Shown here piece by piece: positions 1 to 13,212 of a DNA stretch of 13,212 nucleotides. Made by a program: the position numbers and the translations under genes. The stretch covers positions 1-13,212 of the IMG/VR virus record IMGVR_UViG_3300045988_057159. One strand, written 5' to 3'. The notes beneath the pieces were generated by a model. The model saw nothing but the letters and a program-made list of their open reading frames with translations, had not been told where the DNA came from and ran no database searches. How positions within the stretch are numbered: the first letter of the stretch is position 1; the number at the start of each line of letters is the position of its first letter. The stretch is from a virus.

Positions 1-403
1 GTGTACACACAGCATAGACAGTCATATGACCATGTACAAAAGGTGCAACGTATTTGTTACTGATATATGTTTCACATGAAACATCACATAGTTAGTCGCT
101 CCTAACGCATCCGGGCACGGTGTCCACGGCTCACGCACAAAACAGTGTAGTTGTTTTCGAACATTTGATAGTTTTTGACGAACAGAGCCGCCGGGTATAA
201 GTATAGCCCCGTAAAAATCGTTGCGTACAGGGCCGTCCAGTGCCTCACAGACCATTGTGTATATTGCACAAAACAGAGGGCGAATAATTGGGTAATTATT
301 GTGTAATATTAAAACTTGAAATCGGAAGGATGTGTGGTATAATATAATCACAAAGGGAGAGGAACTCCCGATAACACAATGAAAAGGACGGTAACAAAAA
401 TGA
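1..403. repeat. Left inverted terminal repeat (ITR-L), 403 bp
   Basis: Bases 1-403 are the exact reverse complement of 12810-13212, checked block by block. The first mismatch is at 404 (a, versus c in the right-end reverse complement). It begins with the palindrome GTGTACAC. Confidence 0.95.
316..343 (+). promoter_or_regulatory. Sigma-70/sigma-A type promoter inside ITR-L, pointing inward
   Basis: TTGAAA (316-321), a 16-nt spacer, then an extended -10 TGgTATAAT (335-343). It sits about 35 nt upstream of the 379 ATG. The leader contains the hairpin GGGAG-aggaa-CTCCC (355-369), which overlaps the purine-rich RBS. Confidence 0.7.
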
Positions 404-666
404 AGGCATTGAATCTGAAAAACATGAAGGAAACTTTGGTAAACTATTCCGGAAACCGAGAAGAATTTTCTGTAATATGGAATAAGTTTTATGATTTGGT
501 TTGCTTAGGTTTTATAAGCCGGGGAACATGGTATAAGTTTGCTAAACAGTGCAGTGGATGGTATTATGATGAATATAGCGATTGCATTCGGGACGAACGT
601 AATTGTCAAGACGGGGCTGATTGTATAGTGTGGAAATACACTCCGGACGCTGAATATCACGCATAA
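379..666 (+). CDS. Hypothetical early protein (95 aa), the only plus-strand gene
   Basis: ORF downstream of the ITR-L promoter and followed by a hairpin terminator. The first 8 codons (MKRTVTKM) lie inside the ITR and are shared with ORF 12598-12834. The true start could be the second ATG at 400. I do not recognise any family. Confidence 0.6.
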   Translation: MKRTVTKMKALNLKNMKETLVNYSGNREEFSVIWNKFYDLVCLGFISRGTWYKFAKQCSGWYYDEYSDCIRDERNCQDGADCIVWKYTPDAEYHA

Positions 667-674
667 TATAACAA

Positions 675-709
675 AGCCCCCGGTTCTCGCCGGGGGCTAT
701 TATTATTTT
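675..709. terminator. Bidirectional rho-independent terminator between convergent genes
   Basis: AGCCCCCGG (675-683), loop ttctcg, CCGGGGGCT (690-698). It is followed by attattatttt on the plus strand and by tttgttatatt on the minus strand. It lies between the stop codons at 664-666 (+) and 703-705 (-). Confidence 0.8.
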
Positions 710-1524
710 GTCCTGACGTAGATGTTAAAATTGAAATCGTTGGCATCTCCAGCCGAATTTCCAAAAACGACATTGGACCAACCAAACTTATCGGGCTCTG
801 TCACCGGCTGTCCATGGCTCCCGGCTCTCGCCCACGTGCCGCCGATTGTGCTTTGTAACCTGTTAATAACTGATTCATCGCTTTCTACAGGCATTTCTTG
901 ATTACGATAGTTTACATATATATAACCGACAGGATATATATTGGTCATAGCGGTTTTCATCATAGACGCTAGATAAGCTACCGCATCCTGTGCGTTTGTT
1001 GCCGCCACCTGTGCGCTCTGTGCGGATGTCTGTGCGGTAGTTGCTGCCGCCTGTGCGCTTGTTGCGGCCGTCTGTGCGGTAGTCGCCGCCGCCTGTGCGC
1101 TTGTTGCGTCCGTCTTTGCGGTAGTCGCCGACGCCTGTGCATCATCGGCAGACGCCTGTGCATCATCGGCAGACGTTTGTGCATCATTGGCAGACGTTTG
1201 TGCATTTGCCGCATTTGCTTCTGCGCCGATTGCGCTAGTTCGGGCATTTGCCGCACTTGCCTGTGCGCTGGTTGCGCTAGTCTGTGCACGTGCCGCACTT
1301 GCCTGTGCGCCGGTTGCGCTAGTCTGTGCACTTGCCGCACTTGCCTGTGCAGTAGTCGCCGCCGCCTGTGCATCCGTCAATGCCTTCTGGATACCGGCTC
1401 CCGGCTCCCTTACATAGGTCCATAACTCCGTGACTTTATCCACACAATTCTTTACCGCATCGAGAATCCAGTCAAGGTTAAGCTGGTGTGTGTCCGGGTA
1501 TGGAAAATGGTTAAAAAGTCCCAT
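703..1524 (-). CDS. Tail fibre / appendage (receptor-binding) protein with a central alanine-heptad coiled-coil stalk
   Basis: Last gene of the structural operon, with a perfect RBS AAGGAGGTG 6 nt upstream of the ATG. The N-terminus carries an LNLDWILDAVK-type motif. About 19 heptads of AQxSAxx follow. The C-terminal globular domain (IYPVGYIYV...GGTWA) resembles phage fibre tip domains. Confidence 0.75.
   Translation of the reverse strand: MGLFNHFPYPDTHQLNLDWILDAVKNCVDKVTELWTYVREPGAGIQKALTDAQAAATTAQASAASAQTSATGAQASAARAQTSATSAQASAANARTSAIGAEANAANAQTSANDAQTSADDAQASADDAQASATTAKTDATSAQAAATTAQTAATSAQAAATTAQTSAQSAQVAATNAQDAVAYLASMMKTAMTNIYPVGYIYVNYRNQEMPVESDESVINRLQSTIGGTWARAGSHGQPVTEPDKFGWSNVVFGNSAGDANDFNFNIYVRTK
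973..1371 (-). repeat. Imperfect 21-nt tandem repeat array (about 19 units) inside the fibre gene
   Basis: DNA units of the type gcctgtgcgcttgttgcggccgtct recur in register and encode AQxSAxx heptads. The array leaves several frames open on both strands, which explains the spurious ORFs in the track. Confidence 0.85.
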
Positions 1525-1537
1525 AAATTACACCTCC

Positions 1538-2176
1538 TTAGTACACCATTACGCAAAACCGGTGTTTGAAATCGTCTATAATATACGTCTCCAAATCGTT
1601 GCGGCGCATATCAAGTTCTTCCCTCATCATCTGCTGAGTAGTTGTTACACCGATATTACCATATAGGTGTGCCGTATGTTTTACACTTGTTTCTCTTGTT
1701 ACTGTATTGTCACTTTTGTTAGTGGCACTTGCTGTGCTGTTCGCCGTGTCCGTCCCGGCATTTTTTGTGCGGTTTTTGAAACTTTCTGTATTAAATGCAG
1801 TTTCGGATTCTGTGCTTTCGTTCGTTCCGTTCGCTGTGCTTTCGGTACTGCTTGTACTGTTGCTTGTTCCTGTTTCTTTTTCCGTGTTTGTGTCCGTGTA
1901 GTCCTCATTGCGGTCAAAGTTGTGAATGGGGTTATACTCAGCCGTCAATGCGGCTTCCACCCTCTGCCACTCCGGCAATCTGGTATTGCTCCACGCTTTC
2001 AGAATCCGCTTGAATACATCTGCATTAGGGTAAAGGGCTTCCAACTGCCCCAACTCGGACAGAATTTCATCTACAAATTCTGCTTTAGTCGCAGAAATGG
2101 AATCTGGTAAAGCAAAATCGTCGAAAATGGTGGAATCGTAGTTATACAGTCCCAGGTAACTTACCGTCGGGCGCAT
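1538..2176 (-). CDS. Putative lower collar / head-tail adaptor protein (212 aa from ATG 2176)
   Basis: It lies between the portal and fibre genes, as phi29 gene 11 does. GGAG sits just upstream of ATG 2176, and the gene overlaps the portal stop by 35 nt. It has a central S/T/N/E-rich low-complexity segment and a conserved-looking C-terminus, GNIGVTTTQQMMREELDMR. The function is assigned by synteny only. Confidence 0.5.
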   Translation of the reverse strand: MRPTVSYLGLYNYDSTIFDDFALPDSISATKAEFVDEILSELGQLEALYPNADVFKRILKAWSNTRLPEWQRVEAALTAEYNPIHNFDRNEDYTDTNTEKETGTSNSTSSTESTANGTNESTESETAFNTESFKNRTKNAGTDTANSTASATNKSDNTVTRETSVKHTAHLYGNIGVTTTQQMMREELDMRRNDLETYIIDDFKHRFCVMVY

Positions 2177-3119
2177 CCTGCTCCAGCACATCAGCAAATT
2201 CCTCCTTGTTCTCCCGCCAGTCCACGGAAATTTCGATACCAAACATCTGTTTGGTTTTATCGCAACTCTCTCTCCATCCCTCTAGCCAGCTATCAGCCAT
2301 GCAACGGGTTTCAAAATTGTTTATACCAATTTCACCACTTGCTGTCCGCTCCCGCTTGTTATAGTTGGCGTTAGGTATGCCCACGGTTGTACAGAACATA
2401 TTATCGATATTTAGCAACGCTTCGATAAGCCGGTCTGAAATGTAGTTCTGCCCCACGTTTTGCTCGAAGAACGGGGTGCTAAAGTCGCCATCATCCGTAA
2501 ACATGGACTTGTCTACCACCACGGCGGGGTCACCGCTTGCCACACGGTCAAAAGCCTTCTTAAAACTTTCGGCTGTTGCCTGATTTTTCGCCCCGAAAAC
2601 ATACGCCAGCCGGGAGTTAAACAGATTGACACCCATAGCCTGCGCCGCAAGGGCCATATAGTCCCCGTAAAAGCTGACCATGTCCATAATGCCGCCCCAG
2701 TCCCGGGTGCATTTGAAAACGGTGCATTGCTCATTGATAATAGGGGATTTGATACCCTGCAATAGCGGGTTGGCAATATAATACTGTCGGGGCTGATAGA
2801 ATACATTGTATCCAGACGGTTGTCCACCCTGCGGAATCACTCCGTACTTGTCAGTCTCGACAATCGCAACGGAACCCCCGATATAGAGAGAGTAAAGGAA
2901 ATAGTCCTTGCTCCAAAACTCCGGCATTTTCCACTCAAAAACGCTCATTGCCTTCTGGAGCAAATACCTACGGAAAAACGTTGCCGTAGCGGTGTTGGTT
3001 ACATGGACCCCGGACGGGGAAGTTTTTGCATCAATCACGTTTGAGTAATCGTAATAGTATGGTAAATTCAACTGTATCACCTCTTTGACATATACGGCTT
3101 GAATTTGAAAAGCATCCAT
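2142..3119 (-). CDS. Portal (upper collar / connector) protein, phi29 gp10-like
   Basis: Segments FFRRYLLQKAMSVFEWKMPE and VGIPNANYNKRERTASGEI...FGIEISVDWR parallel the phi29 gp10 blocks (..LFEWENLP.., LGIKNANLEKKERM.., ..LNVKVKFR) as I recall them. ATG 3119 has GGGGA 7 nt upstream and gives 325 aa. The ORF is open up to ATG 3218, but that start has no RBS. Confidence 0.75.
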   Translation of the reverse strand: MDAFQIQAVYVKEVIQLNLPYYYDYSNVIDAKTSPSGVHVTNTATATFFRRYLLQKAMSVFEWKMPEFWSKDYFLYSLYIGGSVAIVETDKYGVIPQGGQPSGYNVFYQPRQYYIANPLLQGIKSPIINEQCTVFKCTRDWGGIMDMVSFYGDYMALAAQAMGVNLFNSRLAYVFGAKNQATAESFKKAFDRVASGDPAVVVDKSMFTDDGDFSTPFFEQNVGQNYISDRLIEALLNIDNMFCTTVGIPNANYNKRERTASGEIGINNFETRCMADSWLEGWRESCDKTKQMFGIEISVDWRENKEEFADVLEQDAPDGKLPGTV

Positions 3120-3643
3120 GCCGGTATCCCCGTTGGCGTTGGCGTTGGAACCGGTCCGGGCGGGAAATCCGGGTGGTAGATAAACCCTTGAAATGCGTAG
3201 TTGCCGTTGATTAGCCATTGCGCCATATTAGTGGTTCCTACCGTGGTATTAGTCCAGAAATACCCCTCCATATCCGGGGGATAATCGGTTAACGGTCTAC
3301 GCCATGCGGATTGCGATATAAGCAATGTCCCGTCCGTGTTGACCCGCTCCACAACTGCCACATGCCCGGCCCCGCCGTCCAGGTCCTCATAACACGCAAC
3401 GGCACCAACCTGCGGAACCTGTCCGGTCCGGTATGCGCCACTCGCTAGGGCATCTGCCCACCACTCGCCGCCGTTGGAAGTTGGTAGGGCCGGGCGGCCC
3501 CCACCAATTTCCCAAAAACGGCCCCATGCATAGCACGTACAGTTTGGCAGACCATAACCGGACTGATAAAACACATTATCAGCATAGTATTTTGGATTCT
3601 GCCACATTCTGCCAGAATCCAGACGTGGTATAAATGTAGCCAT
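3077..3643 (-). CDS. CHAP-domain peptidoglycan hydrolase (probable virion/tail-associated lysin)
   Basis: The catalytic Cys context NCTCYAWGR and His context GHVAVVE are typical of CHAP domains. It is embedded in the tail module between the knob and the portal. Its start overlaps the knob stop (TAATG). The C-terminus has a Pro/Thr-rich linker, PPGPVPTPTPTG. Confidence 0.8.
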   Translation of the reverse strand: MATFIPRLDSGRMWQNPKYYADNVFYQSGYGLPNCTCYAWGRFWEIGGGRPALPTSNGGEWWADALASGAYRTGQVPQVGAVACYEDLDGGAGHVAVVERVNTDGTLLISQSAWRRPLTDYPPDMEGYFWTNTTVGTTNMAQWLINGNYAFQGFIYHPDFPPGPVPTPTPTGIPAWMLFKFKPYMSKR

Positions 3644-5070
3644 TAGTCTAAATACACCCCGCTTTGTAACTGTGCGATAATCGCTTGTTTTTCCTCCGGG
3701 AACATTCCGACACCATCTTCAGCGGCGAGTACAGTACCGCATTGTACATAACCTCCTACATGTGTCCTCAACTGTGAAAAACCTCCAAAAGGCAGGCCTA
3801 CCACCTTAGCCGAAGGGGCTTGAGAAGTGTAAAACCGGCTATGAAGCACGGGATTTTCTGCAAATCCTGCAACACTGCCGTTGGTTCCGCTGGTAGACGG
3901 GGCCGGGATTAGAGATTCAGCCGCATTTAGCACGCCATTTACGGCCCCTCCAATATCGAGAGAAAAACCGGAACCAACGGAAGATAGCACGTTTTTAGCG
4001 GCTCCGATATAGTCATTGACGATTTGCCCAATCTGTAACGGTACACCGATTTGCACACTACCGGCGGATATGTCAGTTGTTTCACCGTGTACCCCAATGG
4101 TATAGATTTTATAAGGCGATGCCCCGGTGCAAAAATCAATCAATACTTGCAATCGCAGTTTTGCGTTGTGATTGCAACTCATGTCCAGCGGGATTGTCCC
4201 AATAGGTGCCCAGTACAAATCCCGCAGTGTGAAGGGTGCTGTCTCGACAAACATACCCCTGTCGTTAAACTGAGGGTGTAACGGCATTGTACACTCAAAT
4301 TCAAACGTTCGAGTTGTTGTACCTATTCTGAATCCGGTAACGGTGAAATTCCACCATCCAAAAGGCATAGAGAAAGTTGAATTTGCGAACCCCTGCGGAA
4401 AAGTCGGGAACCACATACAACTGGTAATATATTGTAGCGGATTGAATAGGGCTTTGAACAAACTTTCGGATATATCTGTAATGCCGGAAAATGCCCAGTT
4501 AGGGGATTCCATCAGCTTTTTGCAAAATGCCCGGAAGTTGGTGTTGTCAAATGCGTAGTATGATACACACCCAACGCTATTTGCATCACTGTTGAGAATA
4601 CCGACTACATAATATCCGTCTTTGAGATTGTAGGCCATATTACCCGCCAATGTGGGTAATAATGTGGTGGTGGTCTGGTCCCCAATGGCCTGAACCGGTG
4701 TGATATAATCTGGAATGCTGGTTCTAGTTAAGGTAGAAGACCGATTGACATACGCATTAAATGTCAAAATTGTGTTACGATATGTAGCCAATACATCTAC
4801 ATCAAGATAGCATATCCACATACCGGAATCATACTCCCAACGGCGAACCCAGTAATACCGGGACGTTTCCGGGATGAATGCATAGTTGATATTCCGGGGT
4901 ATATATGAAGCACCGGCTTCGTTTGCTCCCAACCACAATTTCACTACGGGGTGCAATATGTCAAATGGTTCGACAAATTCACCTTCATATCTCCATGTGG
5001 ATTTCGCAAAATCTTTTACTTGTGTAGAATTGTACGGTTTTCCGGTAGTTTCGAACACCAAATTGACCAT
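3643..5070 (-). CDS. Tail knob / distal tube protein, phi29 gp9-like
   Basis: The N-terminal block INYAFIPETSRYYWVRRWEYDSGMWICYLDVDVLATY mirrors phi29 gp9 ASYIMFQNADYGNKWFYAFVTE...HFEIDVLQTW as I recall it. The C-terminal GYVQCG...EEKQAIIAQLQSGVYL mirrors NYVQTKD...NDLQEIRTIFDNGITLW. The RBS AAGGGGTG lies 5 nt upstream. Confidence 0.75.
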   Translation of the reverse strand: MVNLVFETTGKPYNSTQVKDFAKSTWRYEGEFVEPFDILHPVVKLWLGANEAGASYIPRNINYAFIPETSRYYWVRRWEYDSGMWICYLDVDVLATYRNTILTFNAYVNRSSTLTRTSIPDYITPVQAIGDQTTTTLLPTLAGNMAYNLKDGYYVVGILNSDANSVGCVSYYAFDNTNFRAFCKKLMESPNWAFSGITDISESLFKALFNPLQYITSCMWFPTFPQGFANSTFSMPFGWWNFTVTGFRIGTTTRTFEFECTMPLHPQFNDRGMFVETAPFTLRDLYWAPIGTIPLDMSCNHNAKLRLQVLIDFCTGASPYKIYTIGVHGETTDISAGSVQIGVPLQIGQIVNDYIGAAKNVLSSVGSGFSLDIGGAVNGVLNAAESLIPAPSTSGTNGSVAGFAENPVLHSRFYTSQAPSAKVVGLPFGGFSQLRTHVGGYVQCGTVLAAEDGVGMFPEEKQAIIAQLQSGVYLD

Positions 5071-5087
5071 ATAATCACCCCTTGTTT

Positions 5088-5111
5088 ATATGCCCCCATA
5101 AGGGGGCATAT
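5088..5111 (-). promoter_or_regulatory. Perfect 10-bp stem / 4-nt loop hairpin between the MCP and tail genes (possible attenuator or mRNA-stabilising element)
   Basis: ATATGCCCCC-ataa-GGGGGCATAT. It lies 6 nt after the MCP stop and about 17 nt before the tail knob ATG. There is no U-tract after it on the transcribed (minus) strand. Confidence 0.55.
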
Positions 5112-5116
5112 TTCGC

Positions 5117-6286
5117 TCAGTCCAGACACAAAACAATTCCGTTTTCGGTGAAATCGTTCATCCAACGAACAGTGTAATGGTCCCAACGGACACTGTAGCC
5201 GCCCCTTGCGTTAAGCGGGGTAGTGCCGCTCCACTCGTTGATAAGGCTTGCCCGAATTGCTTCCTCGTCAAAAATCACGCCGAAAACGTCGGCGGTGACA
5301 GCAGACGTTGCAGTGGTAATGGTGCCATCGGGGGCCAGATAGGACGGAGTAACCTTAACTGTTGCGGGACTGTCAATCGACTGCCAGAAACTGACCGGCT
5401 CAAAATCCACAACTTTGAGATAATCGTCGTTGTAGGTAGTGGACATCACCGTCGTGTCAATCATGTTCGCATCGTCGGACAGCAAATACACCTTCTGACG
5501 GTCAAGCGGGGTATGACGGGTAATGGGCTTTCCGGTTACATTGATATGGTATTTGACGGTCCGGTTCGTCATTTTCTCGGACAGCGTGCGGATGTAACCC
5601 AGCATCCAGCGGCAAAAATCCGTCCAGTTTTCGGGCTGTCTTACGGTTTCGGCGGTGAGGGTCTTTCCGGTAATTTCGTTGTACTTGGTAACAAGGTGGA
5701 TAACGTTGTCCGTATCCCCCTTGAGTTTGCCGCCGATAAAGTTCAGAACAGCCAGCCGTGCTTCCGTTTCTTTGTCCTGCTGAACCATATCGTCAAGATT
5801 CTGGTACAGCATCGCCCAGAATCGGCCAAGTTCGGCGGGGCTGGAAAAGGCCACATCCAACTGGTCCTTAAAAATAGGCAGGTCACGGGAGTAGGTGTTG
5901 CCGCCATAGAAATTCAGCTGAAGAATCTTGGGCTTGTGAATCTCATACATATCAACGGACTGATTGTCCGCCAGCGTGTACTCCACATTGTTCTCCGGGT
6001 CTTTGTCAACAACCTGTACTTTACGGGTGTAGCCGCCCCACTTCTGACTGTCCACATAGAGACCGCCAAACTTGCCCCGATAGGGCCGGATAGAAAAATA
6101 GGTGGTAGACAGTACCTGACTGATTGCGTTCAGCAGGTTGTCATAACCGCATTTCAGGGCAGTCGTGCCGACACTTGCAAAGTTTGCAGTGGTAATTTCA
6201 CCAACCGGTTCCGCTCCTCTGACCTGCTTCAGGGTTGCTTTTAACAGGGTAGATACCTGTTCAAAATTGAGTTCATTCTGTGCCAT
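5117..6286 (-). CDS. Major capsid protein (phi29 gp8-like, presumed HK97 fold)
   Basis: 389 aa, immediately downstream of a small scaffold-like gene, with RBS AAAGGAG. The N-terminal ITTANFASVGTTAL and C-terminal GGYSVRWDHYTVRW blocks parallel phi29 gp8 (ATANNVAEVGAGIL, GLYWNYYYHVWQ) as I recall it. Confidence 0.75.
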   Translation of the reverse strand: MAQNELNFEQVSTLLKATLKQVRGAEPVGEITTANFASVGTTALKCGYDNLLNAISQVLSTTYFSIRPYRGKFGGLYVDSQKWGGYTRKVQVVDKDPENNVEYTLADNQSVDMYEIHKPKILQLNFYGGNTYSRDLPIFKDQLDVAFSSPAELGRFWAMLYQNLDDMVQQDKETEARLAVLNFIGGKLKGDTDNVIHLVTKYNEITGKTLTAETVRQPENWTDFCRWMLGYIRTLSEKMTNRTVKYHINVTGKPITRHTPLDRQKVYLLSDDANMIDTTVMSTTYNDDYLKVVDFEPVSFWQSIDSPATVKVTPSYLAPDGTITTATSAVTADVFGVIFDEEAIRASLINEWSGTTPLNARGGYSVRWDHYTVRWMNDFTENGIVLCLD

Positions 6287-6302
6287 TGTTCATATGCTCC
6301 TT

Positions 6303-6650
6303 TCACTTCTTCCCCCGAGTTCTGCCGGGGTCCAGGATACTAGCGGCAACGTCTGCCGCCGTCATTTCGGTTTCGGTCTGCCGGGAGCCGTTAATCATGG
6401 CACCCTGTACTACTTTCATCATATCTTCAAACTGTTTATGAATGGCGGACATCATTTCCTCCATGGGGGACTTCTCAGGCTCCTGCTTCTGCTCCTGCTT
6501 CTGCTCCTGCTTCGGTTGGTCCTGCTTCGGGGGGTCCTGCTTCGTGGCTTCCTGCTTCGGGGTTTCATCCGTCAAAATGGGGGCCAGTGCTACAATTTGT
6601 TCAGCCGTGAAACCCGCATCTTTCAGGGCGGTAATCTGTTCGATTTTCAT
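6303..6650 (-). CDS. Scaffolding protein
   Basis: 115 aa, helical and charged, with a KQ(E/D) repeat tract (KQDPPKQDQPKQEQKQEQKQEPEK). It sits directly upstream of the MCP, as phi29 gene 7 does. Its start overlaps the amidase stop (ATGA), and the RBS is AAGGAGAG. Confidence 0.65.
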   Translation of the reverse strand: MKIEQITALKDAGFTAEQIVALAPILTDETPKQEATKQDPPKQDQPKQEQKQEQKQEPEKSPMEEMMSAIHKQFEDMMKVVQGAMINGSRQTETEMTAADVAASILDPGRTRGKK

Positions 6651-7318
6651 ACTTTTCTCTCCTTTTCGGTAATATATACGTCATAACCGGCATTTTTCAG
6701 TTTCGCCGCCAGTTTTTCGGCGTTCGTTTTGTTCTTAAATGCGCCCATCTGGACACAGTAAAGAACATCCTTGTCCGTTTCCTGTTTGGGGGGAACATAA
6801 TCAACACCGAACTCTGCGCAAATGCTTTCGGCAATGGCTTCGGCAATATCCACCCTCCGGGCCATGATAAAGGCCGCTCCAGCCGGTGTGTCGTGGAAGT
6901 CAACTTCAAACAGGACGGAAGTTGCCGCCATCATGCGGCACTCGTAAAAGGTCTTGTTCTGCTGTACACTGGACCAACGGTCGGACGGCTGACCGATTTT
7001 CTTCATCGCGTAGGCTAGAGTGTTCGCAAGGCTTTTTCCGGCTTCGTAGTAATAGGCCACACACCCACGGGCAACACCTGCTCCACCTGCATTGCTATGC
7101 AAGGCCAAATAATAATCATAGCCCAGCTTGTCACAATCGGCTGGTCTGCCGTCAATGCCCATCTCCGTATGATAGCAGATTTTATGCTTTACGCCACATC
7201 GGTCCAGAGCCTTTCCGACTTCTGCGGCTAACAACTCCATCTGCTCCATCTCGCTACCATAGGTACCACACCCGTAGTTACTGTTCTGGTCGGACGGACT
7301 GATATAGATACTCGGCAT
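6647..7318 (-). CDS. Endolysin: N-acetylmuramoyl-L-alanine amidase (Amidase_3 / MurNAc-LAA type) with a C-terminal SPOR domain
   Basis: IYISPSDQ..N, an E-rich helix, YYLALHSNAGG and LFEVDFHD blocks are typical of the MurNAc-LAA family. The C-terminus LYCVQMGAFKNKTNAEKLAAKLKNAGYDVYI matches the SPOR repeat pattern, giving the same architecture as B. subtilis CwlC. The RBS AAGGAGGG lies 7 nt upstream, directly after the holin. Confidence 0.85.
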   Translation of the reverse strand: MPSIYISPSDQNSNYGCGTYGSEMEQMELLAAEVGKALDRCGVKHKICYHTEMGIDGRPADCDKLGYDYYLALHSNAGGAGVARGCVAYYYEAGKSLANTLAYAMKKIGQPSDRWSSVQQNKTFYECRMMAATSVLFEVDFHDTPAGAAFIMARRVDIAEAIAESICAEFGVDYVPPKQETDKDVLYCVQMGAFKNKTNAEKLAAKLKNAGYDVYITEKERKV

Positions 7319-7321
7319 ATA

Positions 7322-7525
7322 TCAGCCCTCCTTAATGGTAGACAGCTTGCCTTCCAGACGCTCCATGACCTGCGTGTTCCTGTCCAGAGCATCCACCCAG
7401 GCCTTGCTTTCGATTGCGTGTGCTTCCCGTTCTTTCTGCTGACTGTAAAACAGATAGCAAACGCATGCGATAGGGAATCCCACATTGCTAATCAATGTGG
7501 TAATCAACTGTACCGCTTCGTTCAT
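7322..7525 (-). CDS. Holin, BhlA/UviB-like (67 aa, single TMD)
   Basis: MNEAVQLITTLISNVGFPIACVCYLFYSQQKEREA..., with one N-terminal TMD followed by a charged coiled-coil tail. The RBS AAAGGGG lies 8 nt upstream of ATG 7525. It sits immediately upstream of the endolysin. The longer ORF in the track (to 7657) begins at a GTG with no RBS. Confidence 0.75.
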   Translation of the reverse strand: MNEAVQLITTLISNVGFPIACVCYLFYSQQKEREAHAIESKAWVDALDRNTQVMERLEGKLSTIKEG

Positions 7526-7554
7526 AATATTGCCCCTTTCATATTCGTTTTGTT

Positions 7555-7689
7555 GTTGTGGGCCGGGGGAGTTGCACACACCGCTCGCCATTCTCGCCGC
7601 CACTCGCTCCCACAAATGCGTGACCCCGTTCCTGCGGTGGACTGCCGCACGGGCCACCTTCCGGGTGTGTCCTTGCCCACGGGGTCACT
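7555..7689 (-). ncRNA. Candidate structured non-coding RNA or leader (about 135 nt, GC-rich), transcribed from the promoter at 7696-7724
   Basis: A perfect 10-bp closing helix, GUGACCCCGU (complement of 7679-7688) with ACGGGGUCAC (complement of 7620-7629), encloses two hairpins. One is CACC/GGUG plus GGGC/GCCC, the other UGCGG-CAGUCCA-CCGCA, which together form a three-way junction. A second G-rich domain has UGUGGG/CCCACA and GGGAG/CUCCC pairing options. There is no credible ORF or RBS. Confidence 0.5.
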
Positions 7690-7695
7690 ACACAC

Positions 7696-7724
7696 AATAT
7701 AGCACAAATGTTTGTTTTTGTCAA
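7696..7724 (-). promoter_or_regulatory. Near-consensus sigma-A promoter overlapping the ATPase stop codon
   Basis: On the minus strand: TTGACA (7719-7724), a 17-nt spacer ending in TGc, then TATATT (7696-7701). The ATPase TGA stop lies inside the -35 hexamer. The predicted TSS is near 7688-7689. Confidence 0.7.
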
Positions 7725-8764
7725 GCCCAAAAATAGCGGTTTAACAAAATTTCGCACAAACGTTCCTCAAAAATAATCTTGCCGGTTATATACTTCGCCC
7801 ATATCCAGTTATATTTTCGCCGGAAATTCGTCAATTCTGCATCGGACAGACCAAACCGGGCAGGACCGCCGGAAACGTGGGTAGTAATATAGAGGTTTTC
7901 GCCGCCCTTGCGGCGGTAGATACACAACTCGCCGATATTTACAACAGGGTCATAATTGCGTAAGTCCTCCGACTTGTTTGGCATCGCCAAGTCCTCCCCG
8001 ATATACTTGTTGTCCAGGGCCATTGCCCCAAACTCTGTCCCGGCTGTCATACGATAGAGGGCGGTTTTACTTTTTGCCGCTGAGATAGGGCTGTCCATGA
8101 TATTTACCAACATGATACCCCGGTCCGGCATATAGCTGAGTTGCTGGTGCTTACGTTGCATCTGTACTACCTTATTCACAAGGCCCAGCCCCATATAGAT
8201 TGCATTATCCAGCCGGTTAGAGTTGGAGAGACATAGCAACTTAACCGGCGGCTTCCCCAATAATTCCCTGTTACGGTTGATAGTTTCGTATGCGTTCATC
8301 AGGGCCATACATTCTTCCCGTATAGGCCTTGCGTGTGGTTCGGGGATAAATTCATCGTATACAATTATACTGTATTGCTCCCCGTTAAAACCTCTCAAAT
8401 TGCTGATAGTTGATAACGCCAGCATCATTCCAACCGGTGGCCCGTCCGGGACTAGCTTATCTCCGTCCGGCACTCTGCGGACAATTTCCGTTGTATATTT
8501 TCCTGATTTTGACAGTCCCACACATTCGCCGGTATCTTCATTAAGCCGGGCAAATGGGTTATTGCTTTCGTTCGCCGCCAAAAATTCAGTTTCCGTTAGG
8601 GTCCGGCGCAGATAAATAAAAGGTATATCGTTTTCAATGACATACTTCAAAGCACCATAGGTTTTTCCCACACCCCGTGCGCCGGTGCAAAAAATAAAGG
8701 GGTAAGGCTTCTCGACGATTTTCTGAACGTCGAGCCAGCCTTCCGGCGTGTAAATATTTTCCAT
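7721..8764 (-). CDS. DNA encapsidation (packaging) ATPase, phi29 gp16-like
   Basis: Walker A FCTGARGVGKTY, Walker B IIVYDEF, 347 aa (phi29 gp16 is about 330 aa). The RBS GGAGGG lies 5 nt upstream. Confidence 0.85.
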   Translation of the reverse strand: MENIYTPEGWLDVQKIVEKPYPFIFCTGARGVGKTYGALKYVIENDIPFIYLRRTLTETEFLAANESNNPFARLNEDTGECVGLSKSGKYTTEIVRRVPDGDKLVPDGPPVGMMLALSTISNLRGFNGEQYSIIVYDEFIPEPHARPIREECMALMNAYETINRNRELLGKPPVKLLCLSNSNRLDNAIYMGLGLVNKVVQMQRKHQQLSYMPDRGIMLVNIMDSPISAAKSKTALYRMTAGTEFGAMALDNKYIGEDLAMPNKSEDLRNYDPVVNIGELCIYRRKGGENLYITTHVSGGPARFGLSDAELTNFRRKYNWIWAKYITGKIIFEERLCEILLNRYFWA

Positions 8765-8780
8765 GCTATCCCTCCATATA

Positions 8781-8806
8781 GCAAAAGCCCGGTTTCCCGG
8801 GCCTTT
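8781..8806 (-). terminator. Hairpin terminator or attenuator between the early module and the ATPase gene
   Basis: Minus-strand RNA aaaGGCCCGG-gaaa-CCGGGCUUUUGC: a GC stem, a GAAA loop and a U-tract, 11 nt after the 8817 stop. It must be leaky or conditional unless the ATPase has its own unrecognised promoter. Confidence 0.55.
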
Positions 8807-8816
8807 GTGTTGTGAA

Positions 8817-9161
8817 TCAGTCTACGAACACGCAGTTAATAAATTCCCTGCCGCCCTTGCTGGTTCCGGTGGAAACACGGATATGGTGGACATCCAAACC
8901 CGTCTTAGCGAAACATTCCAGCATCGCCTCGAAAGATTCGATAAACGTTGCGGAGTTAGTTGCATACATCTTATCACCGGACTTGATGGAGAGGATTTTC
9001 TGCATATCACCGGTCTTGCGGTCTGCATCCGCAAACAATGCCCACTTGTCAAGTTCCAATGTCTTACCCTTAACAGAGGTCATTTTCTCGATTTCCGGGG
9101 ACGTGGTGAGAAAATACAGGTCAGCTCCCTCTACGTTCTTGCTCATTTTAATGATTTCCAT
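8817..9161 (-). CDS. Hypothetical early protein (114 aa), possibly a ssDNA-binding protein
   Basis: It has its own perfect consensus promoter and the RBS GAAAGGAAG. Its size and position next to the polymerase recall phi29 gene 5. The sequence pattern (..DRKTGDMQKILSIKSGDKMYATNSATFIESF...TSKGGREFINC) resembles small OB-fold phage SSBs, but I cannot verify this without a search. Confidence 0.55.
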   Translation of the reverse strand: MEIIKMSKNVEGADLYFLTTSPEIEKMTSVKGKTLELDKWALFADADRKTGDMQKILSIKSGDKMYATNSATFIESFEAMLECFAKTGLDVHHIRVSTGTSKGGREFINCVFVD

Positions 9162-9218
9162 TGTTGTTACTTCCTTTCAAGTTTTTGTTATTGTGTGTTG
9201 GTGTCTCCAACTGTCTAC

Positions 9219-9247
9219 ATTATATCAAAGACTTTCGTTATTGTCAA
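9219..9247 (-). promoter_or_regulatory. Perfect consensus sigma-70/sigma-A promoter overlapping the polymerase stop codon
   Basis: On the minus strand: TTGACA (9242-9247), exactly 17 nt, then TATAAT (9219-9224). The polymerase TGA stop (9244-9246) lies inside the -35 hexamer. Confidence 0.8.
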
Positions 9248-11373
9248 TGTTTTTCTTTTGTAATTTCCCGTAACAATTTGTCATATTCTGCCGTGATACC
9301 TAGTTGATACGTACTATCTCTAATCACTACATTAGCAGTTATCGGGAGTATGTGTCCGTCAACCGTTAAGGACGTGATAGCCGGGTGGTCATTGTACATA
9401 AGTTCAGCCCCGCCAGCTTTGCGGAAAAGGAAGCCGGGATTTGTGTTGACAAACCTATCCAACCCATTTCCATACTCGTCTCCTGCATCCAGTTCGGGGC
9501 CGCCCTCTTTTTTACTAACTCCGGCAATAGTTACGTGTGTTTTTCCATTTTCGTCCGTGTAGGCGTATTTTTTGGCCCCCAAAGTTGCAAAAGTGGGGTA
9601 TTTTCCATCCGGTTCATACACGCCCATGTAATGGGCTTCGCCTGACGGGTCAACCGCCCAGGCCCCGGACTTTTTACTTGCCGATATGCGGTCATTATTG
9701 TACTGTGTCCAGTCGGGAAGAATATCTGTCTCTAGGTACTTGACAGAATCGGTATCACAATATACAAATCTGGTCCCCACCAAATCAATACCGCATTGCA
9801 AATGGTATCTCGCCCAAGCTGTTGTCCAAACTCCCCACGCATAAGTTAGAAAAGCGTTTCGCCTAGCATCCGCAAGGGCTTCTCCGATATCTAGGGCATC
9901 TTCGCCCCATTCGCCATCGAAATAGACTTCGGGTTTTGCGGGGTTTTGGGCCGTCATGCCGTACACGCTGTTTAGTTTTGCCTTGCTTTTTGCGTATATG
10001 AGTTCCTGCCCTGCTACGTTTTTTAGTTCCGTCTTTTTGTGGTAAAGGTCGCACAAAACGCCCACCATTTCCGGCGGCAATTTGCCATAGGTAGAGTAAT
10101 AGCCGCTTATGACGGTATAGTTCCCGGTATAATGGTCAACGATAATCTGAAGGTCAATATCTGTCACTGTTAACTCTAAGTAATCAGCGGCAATAACTCG
10201 CCCATTGTCATAGACCCCGCCAACAATATTGCGGCATTTGTCCCTTGGGATATAAGGGCATCCGTCAGATATATGCCGCAAGTGGCAATTTGATATTACA
10301 ATCCGTGCCAGCGTTGCGGTTCCTCTTTTCTGCATATTCAAAAGTCTTTCCACTGTTGACATACCCAGCTTTTTGAACTCACCCATCGGAAATAGATTAT
10401 TGCACTGCACATCCGGGTAACTGCTGGAACGGTCTGCCGATATTACATTGTGTAACACTTTTCCAGCGTAGTGTCTGTTTGCGTGGGTATTGCCGCCCCG
10501 GAACGCTTCCCGCAGATAGGTATATACATCAGTGTCGGGGAAAATCGACCGAATTTTGTAGACCAATTCTTTATTGCTCCGTATGGCGTTTCGTACGTCT
10601 CGCCGAACATAACCGGTTGACGTGCGGGGGATAGTGTCCAGTGTATCGCCATCCGCTTGCATTTCATTCGCCAGTGCTTCGCATAGTCCTTGGGTATCGT
10701 TTGTACAGTAGGAAAGTTCATTTTGTGACATTTCTGTCCACGGAAAACGAATTTTTGTATAATCGAACTCTTTTCCTGATAGTTTTGTATGTTCGGCGTG
10801 CATTTTGTTCGTGAATGTGTCCAAACTCATATTTGAATGAAGATATGAACATCTAAACTCGATATTGCCCCATGTACACGCCAAGACTTTCCGGGACTTC
10901 ACCGCCATAACATCTTCCCGGCTGAATTTGTGAATACCGGACAGAAACTGAAATTCATATGATAAATTATGAACCCATATCACAAGCCGGTAATCATTTT
11001 GTATAAGATACTCGTTCCAACCGTCAATCATGGCTATAAATTCTTCCCACGTTCTGCCAATTATCATGCACTTCTCATGTAGACATAAAGTCCAGATATA
11101 CATGATTGATTGCTCGTTGCGGCGGGTTTCTACCCATTCGCCCCGGATTTTCTCCGGGGCTGATAATTCGGGAAAATCTTCCGGCTTTAGGCGGGTTGTT
11201 TCAATGTCAAAAGCCACTATCTGGTCAAGTGTTTCCAGACTTTGCCTTTCGCCGTTGGTATGCTTCCCGGCGTTTCTGCCGTTGCGCTTCTTTCCGCTTT
11301 TGCACGGTACCGGTTTCATAGAAGCCAGCAGTGCGGGGGTTGCGTTTTTTGGCTCTACGACGTTTAATTTCAT
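9244..11373 (-). CDS. Family B DNA polymerase, protein-primed type
   Basis: ExoI FDIETT, ExoII HNLSYEFQF, ExoIII YCTNDT, motif A DRSSSYPD, motif B KAKLNSVYG, motif C YCDTDS, and KxY as GAKKYAY. The start is uncertain. ATG 11373 has GGAGGTG 11-12 nt upstream, and the ORF is open to ATG 11397. Either start overlaps the upstream ORF by about 150-170 nt. Confidence 0.93.
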   Translation of the reverse strand: MKLNVVEPKNATPALLASMKPVPCKSGKKRNGRNAGKHTNGERQSLETLDQIVAFDIETTRLKPEDFPELSAPEKIRGEWVETRRNEQSIMYIWTLCLHEKCMIIGRTWEEFIAMIDGWNEYLIQNDYRLVIWVHNLSYEFQFLSGIHKFSREDVMAVKSRKVLACTWGNIEFRCSYLHSNMSLDTFTNKMHAEHTKLSGKEFDYTKIRFPWTEMSQNELSYCTNDTQGLCEALANEMQADGDTLDTIPRTSTGYVRRDVRNAIRSNKELVYKIRSIFPDTDVYTYLREAFRGGNTHANRHYAGKVLHNVISADRSSSYPDVQCNNLFPMGEFKKLGMSTVERLLNMQKRGTATLARIVISNCHLRHISDGCPYIPRDKCRNIVGGVYDNGRVIAADYLELTVTDIDLQIIVDHYTGNYTVISGYYSTYGKLPPEMVGVLCDLYHKKTELKNVAGQELIYAKSKAKLNSVYGMTAQNPAKPEVYFDGEWGEDALDIGEALADARRNAFLTYAWGVWTTAWARYHLQCGIDLVGTRFVYCDTDSVKYLETDILPDWTQYNNDRISASKKSGAWAVDPSGEAHYMGVYEPDGKYPTFATLGAKKYAYTDENGKTHVTIAGVSKKEGGPELDAGDEYGNGLDRFVNTNPGFLFRKAGGAELMYNDHPAITSLTVDGHILPITANVVIRDSTYQLGITAEYDKLLREITKEKH

Positions 11374-12067
11374 TTTTCGCCTGCACCTCCGTATCATACC
11401 GGCCCGGCTCCGGTCTGCCCTTGTTCTTTAACCGTTTATAATTCCGGTCTTTGATTTCGTCTTGTACGTTGTCCCATTCATGACGCATTTGTTTTCCTGC
11501 GGTAGATGCCAAAAATTTCTCAAAGTTGTCTTTGATGATTTGCGGGTCTATGCCGCCCTCTTTCATTTCCCGGAAAAGGTCAATAATTTGTTCGCTATCG
11601 TACATTTGAGCCAAGCCCATCTGTTCCCGCATATTCAGAAATTCGGTGAATAGGTGGAAATCTTCGTTCGTGCTGATAAAGTCAATGCCCCGGGACTGAA
11701 ATGCTTCTATATGCTTGTTAATGTTTTCTCGGATTCCTCTTATAGTGGTTTTTTGTGGATTCTCGAAAAATTCCACCAAATTCTGCAAGCCTACTGCAAG
11801 GTCTGCAGGTGTGGTCAACTTGCTAGCCGGTCTGATATATTCTTCAAACGTTTTATAACCGTCTGTCCACGCAAACCCGGCCTTTTTGATACTCCGTAGA
11901 CGTTGCATTGCCGTTTTGCGTAGTCTAATGTACTCGTCCTTTGCAGACCGGACGGCATCAGGATCCCCGGCCCAGTCATAGACTTTTGACGGGTCGTAAT
12001 AGTAATCCGGGAGCCGGTAGCGGCTCCCCTCTGGTTTTAACCATTTTGTTTGCTTTCGTTTTGCCAT
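11225..12067 (-). CDS. Putative terminal protein (replication primer), 280 aa from ATG 12067
   Basis: It lies immediately upstream of the protein-primed polymerase, as phi29 gene 3 does, and is of similar size (phi29 TP is 266 aa). It has a basic N-terminus, and the block DEYIRLRKTAMQRLRSIKKAGF parallels phi29 TP AEYARLVKNTKAKIARTKKKYG as I recall it. The C-terminal tail is very basic. The track start at 12073 is a TTG. Confidence 0.55.
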   Translation of the reverse strand: MAKRKQTKWLKPEGSRYRLPDYYYDPSKVYDWAGDPDAVRSAKDEYIRLRKTAMQRLRSIKKAGFAWTDGYKTFEEYIRPASKLTTPADLAVGLQNLVEFFENPQKTTIRGIRENINKHIEAFQSRGIDFISTNEDFHLFTEFLNMREQMGLAQMYDSEQIIDLFREMKEGGIDPQIIKDNFEKFLASTAGKQMRHEWDNVQDEIKDRNYKRLKNKGRPEPGRYDTEVQAKNEIKRRRAKKRNPRTAGFYETGTVQKRKEAQRQKRREAYQRRKAKSGNT

Positions 12068-12174
12068 TTCCAATACCCCAAATTATAGAGCCGGTTAAAC
12101 TCGTCCATTGCATAAGTCCACATCTGACCATAGGGGACACAATAGTCACCGGCAAATTTCCACACCTTTACCAT
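12037..12174 (-). CDS. Possible small ORF (45 aa, MVKVWKFAGDYCVPYGQMWTYAMDEFNRLYNLGYWKWQNESKQNG)
   Basis: It fills the otherwise empty gap 12074-12231 and overlaps the TP start by 31 nt. It is preceded by a 20-codon ORF (12168-12230, MKAVNMWKRILSMPDSRSKW) that has a good RBS (GAGGGG, 7 nt). That ORF's TAA stop ends just after, and overlaps, this ORF's ATG (ATGGTAA). The RBS of the 45-aa ORF itself is weak. Confidence 0.3.
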   Translation of the reverse strand: MVKVWKFAGDYCVPYGQMWTYAMDEFNRLYNLGYWKWQNESKQNG

Positions 12175-12231
12175 TTTGAGCGGCTGTCCGGCATGGACAA
12201 AATCCGCTTCCACATATTGACAGCTTTCATA

Positions 12232-12594
12232 TTATCGCCCCTCGCATACTTCGGCAATCTCGTCTGTAATGTAACAGTTCATTCCGGCACACGTGTGAAC
12301 GTACCGTTGGCACGTTTTGCAATTTGGAATAATCCTGTCGCGTATTTTCCATGGCAATTTACGGATATAAGAGCATAGGTCAATATCTTTAACCGTTGCC
12401 CAGGTGGTGGTGTATACATCCCCATAGTATGCCGTGGGGGCATAGGGGATATATTTCCCGGTAAATCTGTCCACAACATATGGAGCGCAGTGTGCGCCCC
12501 GGATAATTGCCGCCGCAAACTTGCCATCTTTAACTAAGATTGCATCGTTGTAGCCTTTGACCAAATGCCATCCGTCTGTATATATTTTACTCAT
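12232..12594 (-). CDS. Hypothetical early protein (120 aa) with a Cys-rich C-terminus
   Basis: Tight packing with the upstream gene and an AAGGA RBS. The C-terminal CKTCQRYVHTCAGMNC...C pattern suggests a possible metal-binding module. I do not recognise any family. Confidence 0.65.
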   Translation of the reverse strand: MSKIYTDGWHLVKGYNDAILVKDGKFAAAIIRGAHCAPYVVDRFTGKYIPYAPTAYYGDVYTTTWATVKDIDLCSYIRKLPWKIRDRIIPNCKTCQRYVHTCAGMNCYITDEIAEVCEGR

Positions 12595-12597
12595 TTC

Positions 12598-12834
12598 TTA
12601 CACATCCTTATAATATACCCGGTAGCAATAACTTGTACTGTCCCATCTGGGGAGCAACACATATTTCTCTCCGGCTCTCCGTCCTCTTGCAACTCCCGTT
12701 GTTAGAGTGTCGCTATCTTTCAAGCGGCGGGACACATAGCCCCGTTCAGATTTTGTGTCATACACCACGATTTTACCGTCTGCACAAGCCTTGCAAAATT
12801 CACCGTATGTCATTTTTGTTACCGTCCTTTTCAT
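12598..12834 (-). CDS. Hypothetical early protein (78 aa), first gene of the rightward-end early operon
   Basis: It is driven by the ITR-R copy of the promoter. The first 8 codons (MKRTVTKM) lie inside the ITR and are identical to those of ORF 379-666. The alternative start is the second ATG at 12813. Confidence 0.6.
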   Translation of the reverse strand: MKRTVTKMTYGEFCKACADGKIVVYDTKSERGYVSRRLKDSDTLTTGVARGRRAGEKYVLLPRWDSTSYCYRVYYKDV

Positions 12835-13212
12835 TGTGTTATCGGGAGTTCCTCTCCCTTTGTGATTATATTATACCACACATCCTTCCGATTTCAAGTT
12901 TTAATATTACACAATAATTACCCAATTATTCGCCCTCTGTTTTGTGCAATATACACAATGGTCTGTGAGGCACTGGACGGCCCTGTACGCAACGATTTTT
13001 ACGGGGCTATACTTATACCCGGCGGCTCTGTTCGTCAAAAACTATCAAATGTTCGAAAACAACTACACTGTTTTGTGCGTGAGCCGTGGACACCGTGCCC
13101 GGATGCGTTAGGAGCGACTAACTATGTGATGTTTCATGTGAAACATATATCAGTAACAAATACGTTGCACCTTTTGTACATGGTCATATGACTGTCTATG
13201 CTGTGTGTACAC
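12810..13212. repeat. Right inverted terminal repeat (ITR-R), 403 bp
   Basis: Exact reverse complement of 1-403. The identical 109-aa ORF translations in the ORF track (22-351 minus, 12862-13191 plus) agree with this. Confidence 0.95.
12870..12897 (-). promoter_or_regulatory. ITR-R copy of the inward-facing sigma-A promoter
   Basis: Mirror image of 316-343: TTGAAA, 16 nt, TGgTATAAT on the minus strand. It would drive the long minus-strand early operon. Confidence 0.7.

Follow-up and report, generated by a model that had tools for sequence, protein, structure and literature searches.

The DNA analyzed here, hereafter the window, is a stretch of 13,212 nt (IMG/VR virus record IMGVR_UViG_3300045988_057159, positions 1 to 13,212), and the element under study is a 69 nt RNA predicted to fold into a three-way junction, encoded on the minus strand between the genes for the DNA-packaging ATPase and the holin. 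The ATPase (7721–8764, minus strand, 347 aa) is of the gp16 type (Pfam PF05894 Podovirus_Gp16, E = 1e-18; phrog_2150 terminase, E = 2e-28). The holin (7322–7525, minus strand, 67 aa; phrog_4898 holin, E = 7e-11) is the first gene of the late module. Its ATG lies at 7525–7523, and a Shine-Dalgarno-like (SD) sequence, AAAGGGG, can be read at 7533–7539 on the same strand. The three-way-junction RNA itself occupies 7620–7688 (minus strand).

A promoter of the sigma-70/sigma-A type is found at 7696–7724 (minus strand), with the -35 element TTGACA at 7724–7719, a 17 nt spacer and an extended -10 element, TGcTATATT, in which the TG is at 7704–7703 and the hexamer at 7701–7696. It matches the consensus at 11 of 12 positions in addition to the extended -10, and its -35 element overlaps the stop codon of the ATPase gene (7721–7723). 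The near-consensus promoter on the ATPase stop that a preliminary description, made from the sequence alone, had pointed out is therefore confirmed. In most relatives the TTGACA is encoded inside conserved C-terminal codons of the ATPase (Leu-Thr, in ...LLTKY...), so that there the protein sequence constrains this promoter; the window differs in having the -35 element over the stop codon. The 5′ end of the transcript is predicted at about 7688–7690. Close relatives carry insertions and deletions of +2, -2 and -3 nt in the stretch before the holin ribosome binding site, in agreement with the earlier view that it is non-coding. An N-terminal extension of the holin, for which the open reading frame (ORF) 7322–7657 is open in frame, was ruled out by the -2 deletion in the related locus L004 and the +2 and -3 changes in L003.

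The minimum free energy (MFE) fold of the 69 nt core reproduces the one that had been drawn by eye, with a perfect 10 bp closing helix around two hairpins whose loops are CGGAA and CAGUCCA. Helix A, the closing helix, pairs 7679–7688 (GUGACCCCGU) with 7620–7629 (ACGGGGUCAC), and helix C pairs 7675–7678 (GGGC) with 7651–7654 (GCCC). The 5′ strand continues into a 7 nt bulge, AAGGACA (7668–7674, the “CE bulge”), and then into hairpin E (7655–7667), where the stem CACC/GGUG (7667–7664 with 7658–7655) carries the near-invariant loop CGGAA (7663–7659). Hairpin D (7633–7649) has the stem UGCGG/CCGCA and the loop CAGUCCA (7644–7638), and a purine-rich junction strand leads from helix D to helix A (7630–7632; GGA here, AAGAA or AUGAA in relatives). 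All of these elements are on the minus strand.

Folded as 80 nt, the core has an MFE of -37.1 kcal/mol and a z-score of -2.2, with 5 of 200 shuffled sequences equally stable. When 70 nt segments of both strands are compared, it ranks second in G+C and 14th of 5258 in stability. It is thus among the most GC-rich and self-complementary segments of the genome, but it is not the top one as had been suggested. The other most GC-rich and most stable 70 nt region, 3430–3540 (MFE about -35 kcal/mol on both strands), is inside coding sequence near a gene for a CHAP-domain protein. The impression that the whole leader of about 165 nt is highly structured did not hold up: the complete 170 nt leader is no more stable than its shuffles (z = +1.2), and its 3′ 90 nt folded alone gave z = +1.8. 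A second structured domain is tentatively placed at 7556–7615 (minus strand), where an outer helix, UUGUGGG (7615–7609) with CCCACAA (7562–7556), encloses three GGCGAG repeats. RNAalifold on five close relatives found two compensatory changes in this outer helix. The domain is highly conserved and confined to the narrow clade of the window, and relatives with ATPases 55–56% identical have the core without it. It recalls domain II of the packaging RNA (pRNA) of Bacillus phage phi29, although as a resemblance only.

Related loci were gathered through the similarity of their ATPases, and a covariance model, R1, was built from 36 of them. The core at 7620–7688 is its single match in the window (71.7 bits, E = 7e-16). 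Nearly every relative has an element of 66–80 nt with the same layout just after a promoter, and the family is present in more than 90 related contigs, with ATPases 24–97% identical and one copy per genome. Many of these small phi29-like phages were sampled from the human gut. Of 83 sources, 78 gave one R1 match per locus, in every case on the strand of the genes; 77 of these sources scored 30–80 bits (E from 1e-18 to 1e-5) and one 19 bits (E = 0.12). The model also finds the members with ATPases 55–56% identical, and gives weaker matches in human-gut contigs with ATPases 24–37% identical. A scan of IMG/VR with a loose DNA pattern, which returned mostly unrelated contigs, served as a control of specificity. 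R1 matched 9 of 80 contigs, all nine of them 9–14 kb in length; the six that were new all contain a homologue of the ATPase, and the other three had already been gathered through it. No match was seen in the approximately 650 kb of unrelated phage DNA retrieved by the same pattern.

The whole window and a 241 nt region of it alone were also searched with the 4227 families of Rfam 15 at E up to 10, with nothing relevant found; the matches to IS009, sR12 and Rev39 were due to chance. The family is large, previously undescribed and absent from Rfam 15, and, judging from the sequences, it is close to certain that the 69 nt element belongs to a real, structured and conserved RNA family. At its edges are candidates seen by eye. 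Amedibacillus phage AD70P2 (OP172638) has one at 6404–6475 (minus strand), in a 123 nt gap after the ATPase, which the covariance model does not detect. Together with L070 and L092, AD70P2 (L086) forms a subfamily with the bulge (A)UAUCCAA and a D loop containing GGGA, which in L070 is a GNRA-type tetraloop; with the D stem intact, the bulge and loop of this subfamily can form no more than a 3 bp UCC/GGA match. AD70P2 and L092 also have an E loop other than CGGAA.

The preliminary description had proposed to look for covariation across relatives, and this is clearly present, with all four helices conserved and strongly covarying. An alignment by MAFFT, not fitted to any model, had 80% of its cells paired, compared to 54% for shuffles and approximately 40% when the pairing partners were slid. 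The covariation score of this alignment was 0.65, against 0.19 for shuffles (0 of 500 as high) and 0.13–0.22 for the slid controls, and 26 of the 28 pairs change on both sides. The model-fitted alignment of 55 distinct sequences was 83% paired with a score of 0.71. Across the family, changes on both sides affect 10 of 10 pairs in helix A and 3 of 4 in helix C, and even among relatives that are 93–97% identical the stem of hairpin E shows a compensatory change from A-U to U-A. G-U cells (64) are matched by A-C cells (59), meaning that the helices alone do not tell which strand is transcribed. Outside the E loop no unpaired position is conserved at 90% or more, and there is no conserved junction core of the riboswitch type; identity above 60–90% is confined to the E loop and to a few positions in the bulge and the junction.

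A contact between the two hairpin loops through complementary GGA and UCC triplets had also been proposed. It is present in the sequence of the window but is not conserved: 61% of its cells are paired, with 59% for shuffles, and 39 of 52 sequences have one of its three pairs disrupted. The long-range pairing that is supported joins GGAC in the bulge (7672–7669) to GUCC in the D loop (7642–7639). This pairing is outside the covariance model; it is nevertheless 73% paired, with double changes in four of five pairs. In general, the D loop can form Watson-Crick pairs with the last 4–6 nt of the bulge, and the longest complementary run averages 4.7 when both parts come from one genome and 2.4 when they come from different genomes. 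The family contains 14 or more different pairs of at least 4 bp, among them GGAC/GUCC, GCACA/UGUGC, AACCAA/UUGGUU and GUAUCA/UGAUAC. In some near-identical RNAs (e.g., L031 and L032) the sole differences are double compensatory changes in this pairing. The sequences are compatible with a pairing inside one molecule as well as with one between molecules. The pRNA of phi29 presented the same ambiguity until trans-complementation experiments resolved it.

The phage in question is a small phi29-like podovirus. Perfect inverted terminal repeats (ITRs) of 403 bp at 1–403 and 12810–13212 indicate that the window is a complete linear genome. All genes are on the minus strand apart from a single short ORF at the left end. 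In addition to the ATPase and the holin they encode a type-B DNA polymerase of the protein-primed type (PolB, 9244–11397), an amidase-SPOR endolysin, a phi29-type capsid protein, a CHAP protein, a gp10-type connector and a tail fibre. PF05894, PF05352, PF25622 and PF03175 were all matched among the proteins, which is in accordance with a phi29-like phage that has a gp16-type ATPase and a gp10-type connector. No match to the whole window was found by megablast in 50,697 GenBank phage records. The ATPase is closest to that of unannotated human-faecal contigs, and the nearest cultured relatives are 12–15 kb phages of Amedibacillus and Clostridium innocuum. The 3′ end of the polymerase gene has a promoter with a 12 of 12 consensus match and an extended -10 (9219–9247, minus strand), which presumably drives the small ORF and the ATPase gene and would so place the ATPase in a transcription unit separate from the late module. 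Each ITR also has a strong promoter (316–343 on the plus strand and 12897–12870 on the minus strand; 11 of 12 plus the TG) and a small hairpin (355–369 and 12844–12858). ARAGORN found no tRNA in the window.

In phi29, pRNA bridges the ATPase, connector and capsid proteins; the present genome encodes all of these, and a canonical pRNA was not found in the window. The Rfam model RF00044, which detects the pRNA of phi29 at 145 bits as a positive control, gave no match on the window or on the 241 nt region alone at E up to 10, and none at its gathering score in 17 related loci, including two complete genomes and one 10.8 kb contig. Conversely, R1 does not find the pRNA of phi29. The earlier picture of a genome with a gp16-like ATPase and a gp10-like portal but no annotated pRNA agrees with the Pfam matches and the RF00044 result, and the new RNA is not detectable as a member of RF00044. 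A topological descriptor meant to cover both RNAs was dropped, as it had 14–46 matches per genome and missed phi29 because of its bulged helices.

The surroundings of the element were compared across the family. A promoter matching at least 10 of 12 consensus positions precedes it in 55 of 70 unique related loci, and the distance from the end of the -10 hexamer to helix A is 3–10 nt (mode 6), which places the start of the RNA essentially at that of helix A. The SD sequence of the next gene is 10–45 nt downstream of the element. The constant partner of the element is the start of the late transcription unit. In genomes of the window type it follows the ATPase, while in three rearranged types (L103, L223, and L224) it does not. 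In L103 it is at 289–358 and heads a late module beginning with the endolysin gene, with the ATPase on the other strand. In L223, which has 211 bp ITRs, the element is just inside the right ITR, with a holin gene homologous to that of the window as the next gene; the ATPase gene ends in a terminator that faces the convergent late module. In L224 the element is approximately 1 kb from the left end, and a terminator again comes after the ATPase. All three types have a late module inverted with respect to the replication and ATPase module, with the element 0.25–1 kb from the end of the contig or genome. In the early region of the 13 kb phi29-like genome L223, Rfam also identifies a type II hammerhead ribozyme (807–871, plus strand; 47 bits, gathering score 37).

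The gene that follows the element varies further among relatives, with an unknown non-membrane protein encoded in L019 and L037. In L092 (MT836587, positions 4082–4228; ATPase 24% identical) a tRNA-Gln, called by both ARAGORN and Rfam, begins 2 nt after a weak 16-bit match to the element. Processing by RNase P would release a discrete RNA at this locus, where there is no ORF for it to regulate.

The architecture of the element was compared with that of pRNA (RF00044; Hill et al. 2016, PMC5066667). Both RNAs belong to phi29-like podoviruses with a gp16-type ATPase and a gp10-type connector, and both are primary transcripts, as predicted here for the new family, that begin at helix A; pRNA starts at the +1 of its promoter. 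The strand order of the RF00044 consensus and of the new family is the same: A, C, 5′ bulge, E hairpin, C′, D hairpin, A′. In both, the 5′ bulge after helix C has nothing opposite, and the 3′ strand of C comes directly after hairpin E. The bulge is 9 nt in the RF00044 consensus and 7 nt in the window RNA. Both show 4–6 nt of Watson-Crick complementarity between bulge and D loop that covaries between phages. In phi29, the bulge ends next to helix E in AACC, which pairs with GGUU in the D loop of another molecule; these are the positions that covary in the new family, which makes the two RNAs equivalent in position.

With this specific architecture in a phage of the appropriate type, the interpretation that we favor, and to which we give an even chance, is that the 69 nt RNA is a compact counterpart of pRNA, made as the 5′ end of the late mRNA. 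The near-consensus promoter would transcribe an RNA with helix A at, or a few nt from, its 5′ end. By analogy with phi29 pRNA, the bulge of one molecule would pair with the D loop of the next, and this intermolecular pairing would join the molecules into a ring, which in pRNA has 5–6 members, at the portal vertex of the prohead; helix A would dock the gp16-type ATPase, and the ring would take part in packaging. Unlike the pRNA of phi29, the RNA would be produced as the 5′ end of the mRNA for holin, endolysin, capsid and portal, and it might either act in place on the mRNA or be freed by cleavage in the A/U-rich linker after helix A.

Several observations weigh against a pRNA counterpart. Similarity to RF00044 is undetectable in either direction. 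The new RNA is 69–75 nt in length, compared to 117–174 nt for pRNA. Its helix A is unbulged and put at 10–13 bp, with 10 bp in the window and mostly 7–14 bp in relatives, whereas that of pRNA is bulged and has about 25 bp; helix C has 4 bp rather than 9. The unpaired junction strand is A-rich and between D and A here, and is UUU between C and D in pRNA. The nearly invariant E loop (CGGAA) is also unlike pRNA. Since helices C and D are similar in length, a contact between bulge and loop of the same molecule is geometrically conceivable. The connector of phi29 binds pRNA through a basic N-terminal segment. The longest ORF of the window portal begins MANQRQLRISR, but related portals begin approximately 45 residues later and are not basic there, so that a basic N-terminus of the type that binds pRNA in phi29 is not conserved among these portals. 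Finally, the genomic position speaks against it. In L103, L223, and L224 the element accompanies the beginning of the late module, not the ATPase. There is no consistent terminator, as 5 or more U occur among the first 8 nt in only 11 of 71 unique tails; an intrinsic terminator after helix A was thereby ruled out as a consistent feature, although the tail is A/U-rich. The downstream gene is most often a lysis gene, holin or endolysin, from non-homologous families. In addition, a site complementary to the 5′ half and loop of hairpin E, termed anti-E, is present 7–13 nt after helix A in approximately 28% of unique loci (about 20 of 71).

The anti-E site covaries with hairpin E and lies just upstream of the SD sequence in several clades, in pairs such as UCCGGC with GCCGGA, UCCGGG with CCCGGA, and UUCCGAG with CUCGGAA. 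It was found in L008, L015, L017–L032, L045, L067–L076, L019, L088 (where it measures 9 nt, GCUUCCGGC), and L223, and is absent from the clade of the window. Such a covarying site points to an RNA-RNA switch acting in cis. L081 and L082 have a perfect 20 nt palindrome, AAUGUUUCACGUGAAACAUU, directly before the SD sequence, which could be a DNA operator or an RNA hairpin.

The main alternative, which we regard as a serious possibility but would not expect to prevail, is therefore a cis-acting 5′ leader of a lysis-first late operon, in which an intramolecular pseudoknot between bulge and D loop locks the three-way junction. Such a leader could protect the 5′ end from RNases, could act on RNA polymerase, either as a put-like processive antiterminator or as a checkpoint like that in the lambda pR′ leader, or could gate translation of the first late gene through the E loop and anti-E. 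This reading accounts better for the strict place of the RNA as a 5′ leader, always the first product of the late promoter, and for the missing terminator, the lysis-first order of genes, the presence of anti-E and the invariance of the E loop. The same is suggested by the C. innocuum phages, in which a candidate found by eye is in front of the ATPase gene, and it is the ATPase gene that there opens the late module. An E loop that is invariant when the ATPases are only about 40% identical would also fit a conserved host partner. On the other hand, a stabilizer or antiterminator needs no such architecture, and the match to pRNA in helix order, bulge side and pairing positions would have to be a coincidence. 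An expression platform is missing in about 70% of loci, the downstream gene varies to the point of being a tRNA in L092 or an unknown non-membrane protein in L019 and L037, and the junction core is not conserved as in a riboswitch. Furthermore, the pairing sequence turns over fast, which is unusual for the tertiary contacts of riboswitches.

The RNA could also combine both functions, as a packaging RNA and a sensor whose E loop and anti-E restrain holin translation until prohead binding or cleavage of the leader frees the SD sequence. Lysis timing would then be coupled to packaging. The pRNA-like architecture together with the leader position and the anti-E covariation is consistent with this, as is the fact that a holin or endolysin gene usually comes first downstream. 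It is, however, an unlikely solution, because it stacks two separate inferences and because anti-E is absent from approximately 70% of unique loci, including the clade of the window. In its broadest form, a minimal pRNA of about 70 nt would be the packaging RNA of a very large clade of 12–14 kb phi29-like phages of gut Firmicutes, residing in the 5′ leader of the late mRNA, and its E loop would toggle between anti-E and prohead and so couple holin expression and lysis timing to the assembly of the motor; we consider this a speculation with little chance of being correct.

A chance cluster of GC-rich hairpins, an element acting at the level of DNA, or a known ribozyme or tRNA-like RNA is highly improbable: the single-sequence z-score of only -2.2 and the equal G-U and A-C counts would allow it, but it is effectively refuted by the covariation of every helix in a family of more than 90 contigs. 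Against it are also the promoter directly upstream in the same orientation in most of the unique related loci, and the absence of any Rfam family at E up to 10 and of any ARAGORN tRNA in the window. A hammerhead or other ribozyme was excluded, as there is no Rfam match, the junction strands are too short and there is no CUGAUGA/GAAA core. Taken together, the preliminary proposal of a pRNA analogue or lysis-timing leader is partly supported. The covariation and the architecture, which comes closer to pRNA than had been described, speak for the pRNA analogue; the failure of the proposed loop-loop contact and the lack of an RF00044 match limit this support, and the constant position as a late-operon 5′ leader without a terminator keeps the leader alternative in play.

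To our knowledge, pRNA has since 1987 been the sole known RNA component of a viral DNA-packaging motor. According to a 2024 review, it is unique to phi29 and related Bacillus phages (PMC11476376). An Infernal-based survey from 2025 added 12 pRNAs using phi29, GA1 and DLc1 as seeds, and those named are from Bacillus phages (PMC12670572). A review from 2026 still treats pRNA as a peculiarity of phi29 (PMC13595956). The statement that pRNAs are described only for Bacillus phages is thus in good agreement with the literature (PMC11476376, PMC5066667, PMC12670572), and our literature search found no description of a pRNA outside Bacillus phages. A pRNA-like RNA in gut relatives that have no canonical pRNA would suggest that an RNA scaffold is ancestral to phi29-like phages rather than an oddity of Bacillus phages. 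If the RNA is a counterpart of pRNA, it would provide RNA nanotechnology with a natural minimal pRNA of about 70 nt and dozens of orthogonal pairing codes. The question of why a packaging motor needs RNA would become testable in a second, very different system, as a variant seems to be present in the cultured Amedibacillus phage AD70P2. If it is instead a cis-acting leader, it is still a new, abundant and strongly covarying phage RNA family that is absent from Rfam, and it would control the late and lysis operon of some of the smallest tailed phages.

Compared to known systems, the new family is set apart from pRNA by its location and hosts. Its place is the 5′ terminus of the late operon, immediately ahead of an SD sequence and without a terminator, in phages of gut Firmicutes whose nearest cultured relatives infect Amedibacillus and Clostridium innocuum; pRNA is encoded by a separate early gene near the genome end in phages of Bacillus. 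The put RNAs of phage HK022 consist of two hairpins, without a three-way junction or a bulge/loop pairing, and act in cis. The lambda pR′ leader, or 6S RNA, precedes the S-R-Rz lysis genes, ends in a terminator and needs the protein Q. Like these, the new RNA is a structured RNA of about 70 nt that comes right after a strong promoter and heads a long lysis-first operon; it is unlike the lambda leader in having no terminator and no identified Q-like factor. With the aptamers of THF-I and purine riboswitches it shares the location in a 5′ untranslated region, a closing helix (P1) with two arms, and a covarying Watson-Crick tertiary contact. It differs from them in matching no Rfam family, in its variable junction core and in mostly lacking an expression platform, and also in that its tertiary pairing changes fast and the genes downstream serve lysis and virion structure rather than metabolism.

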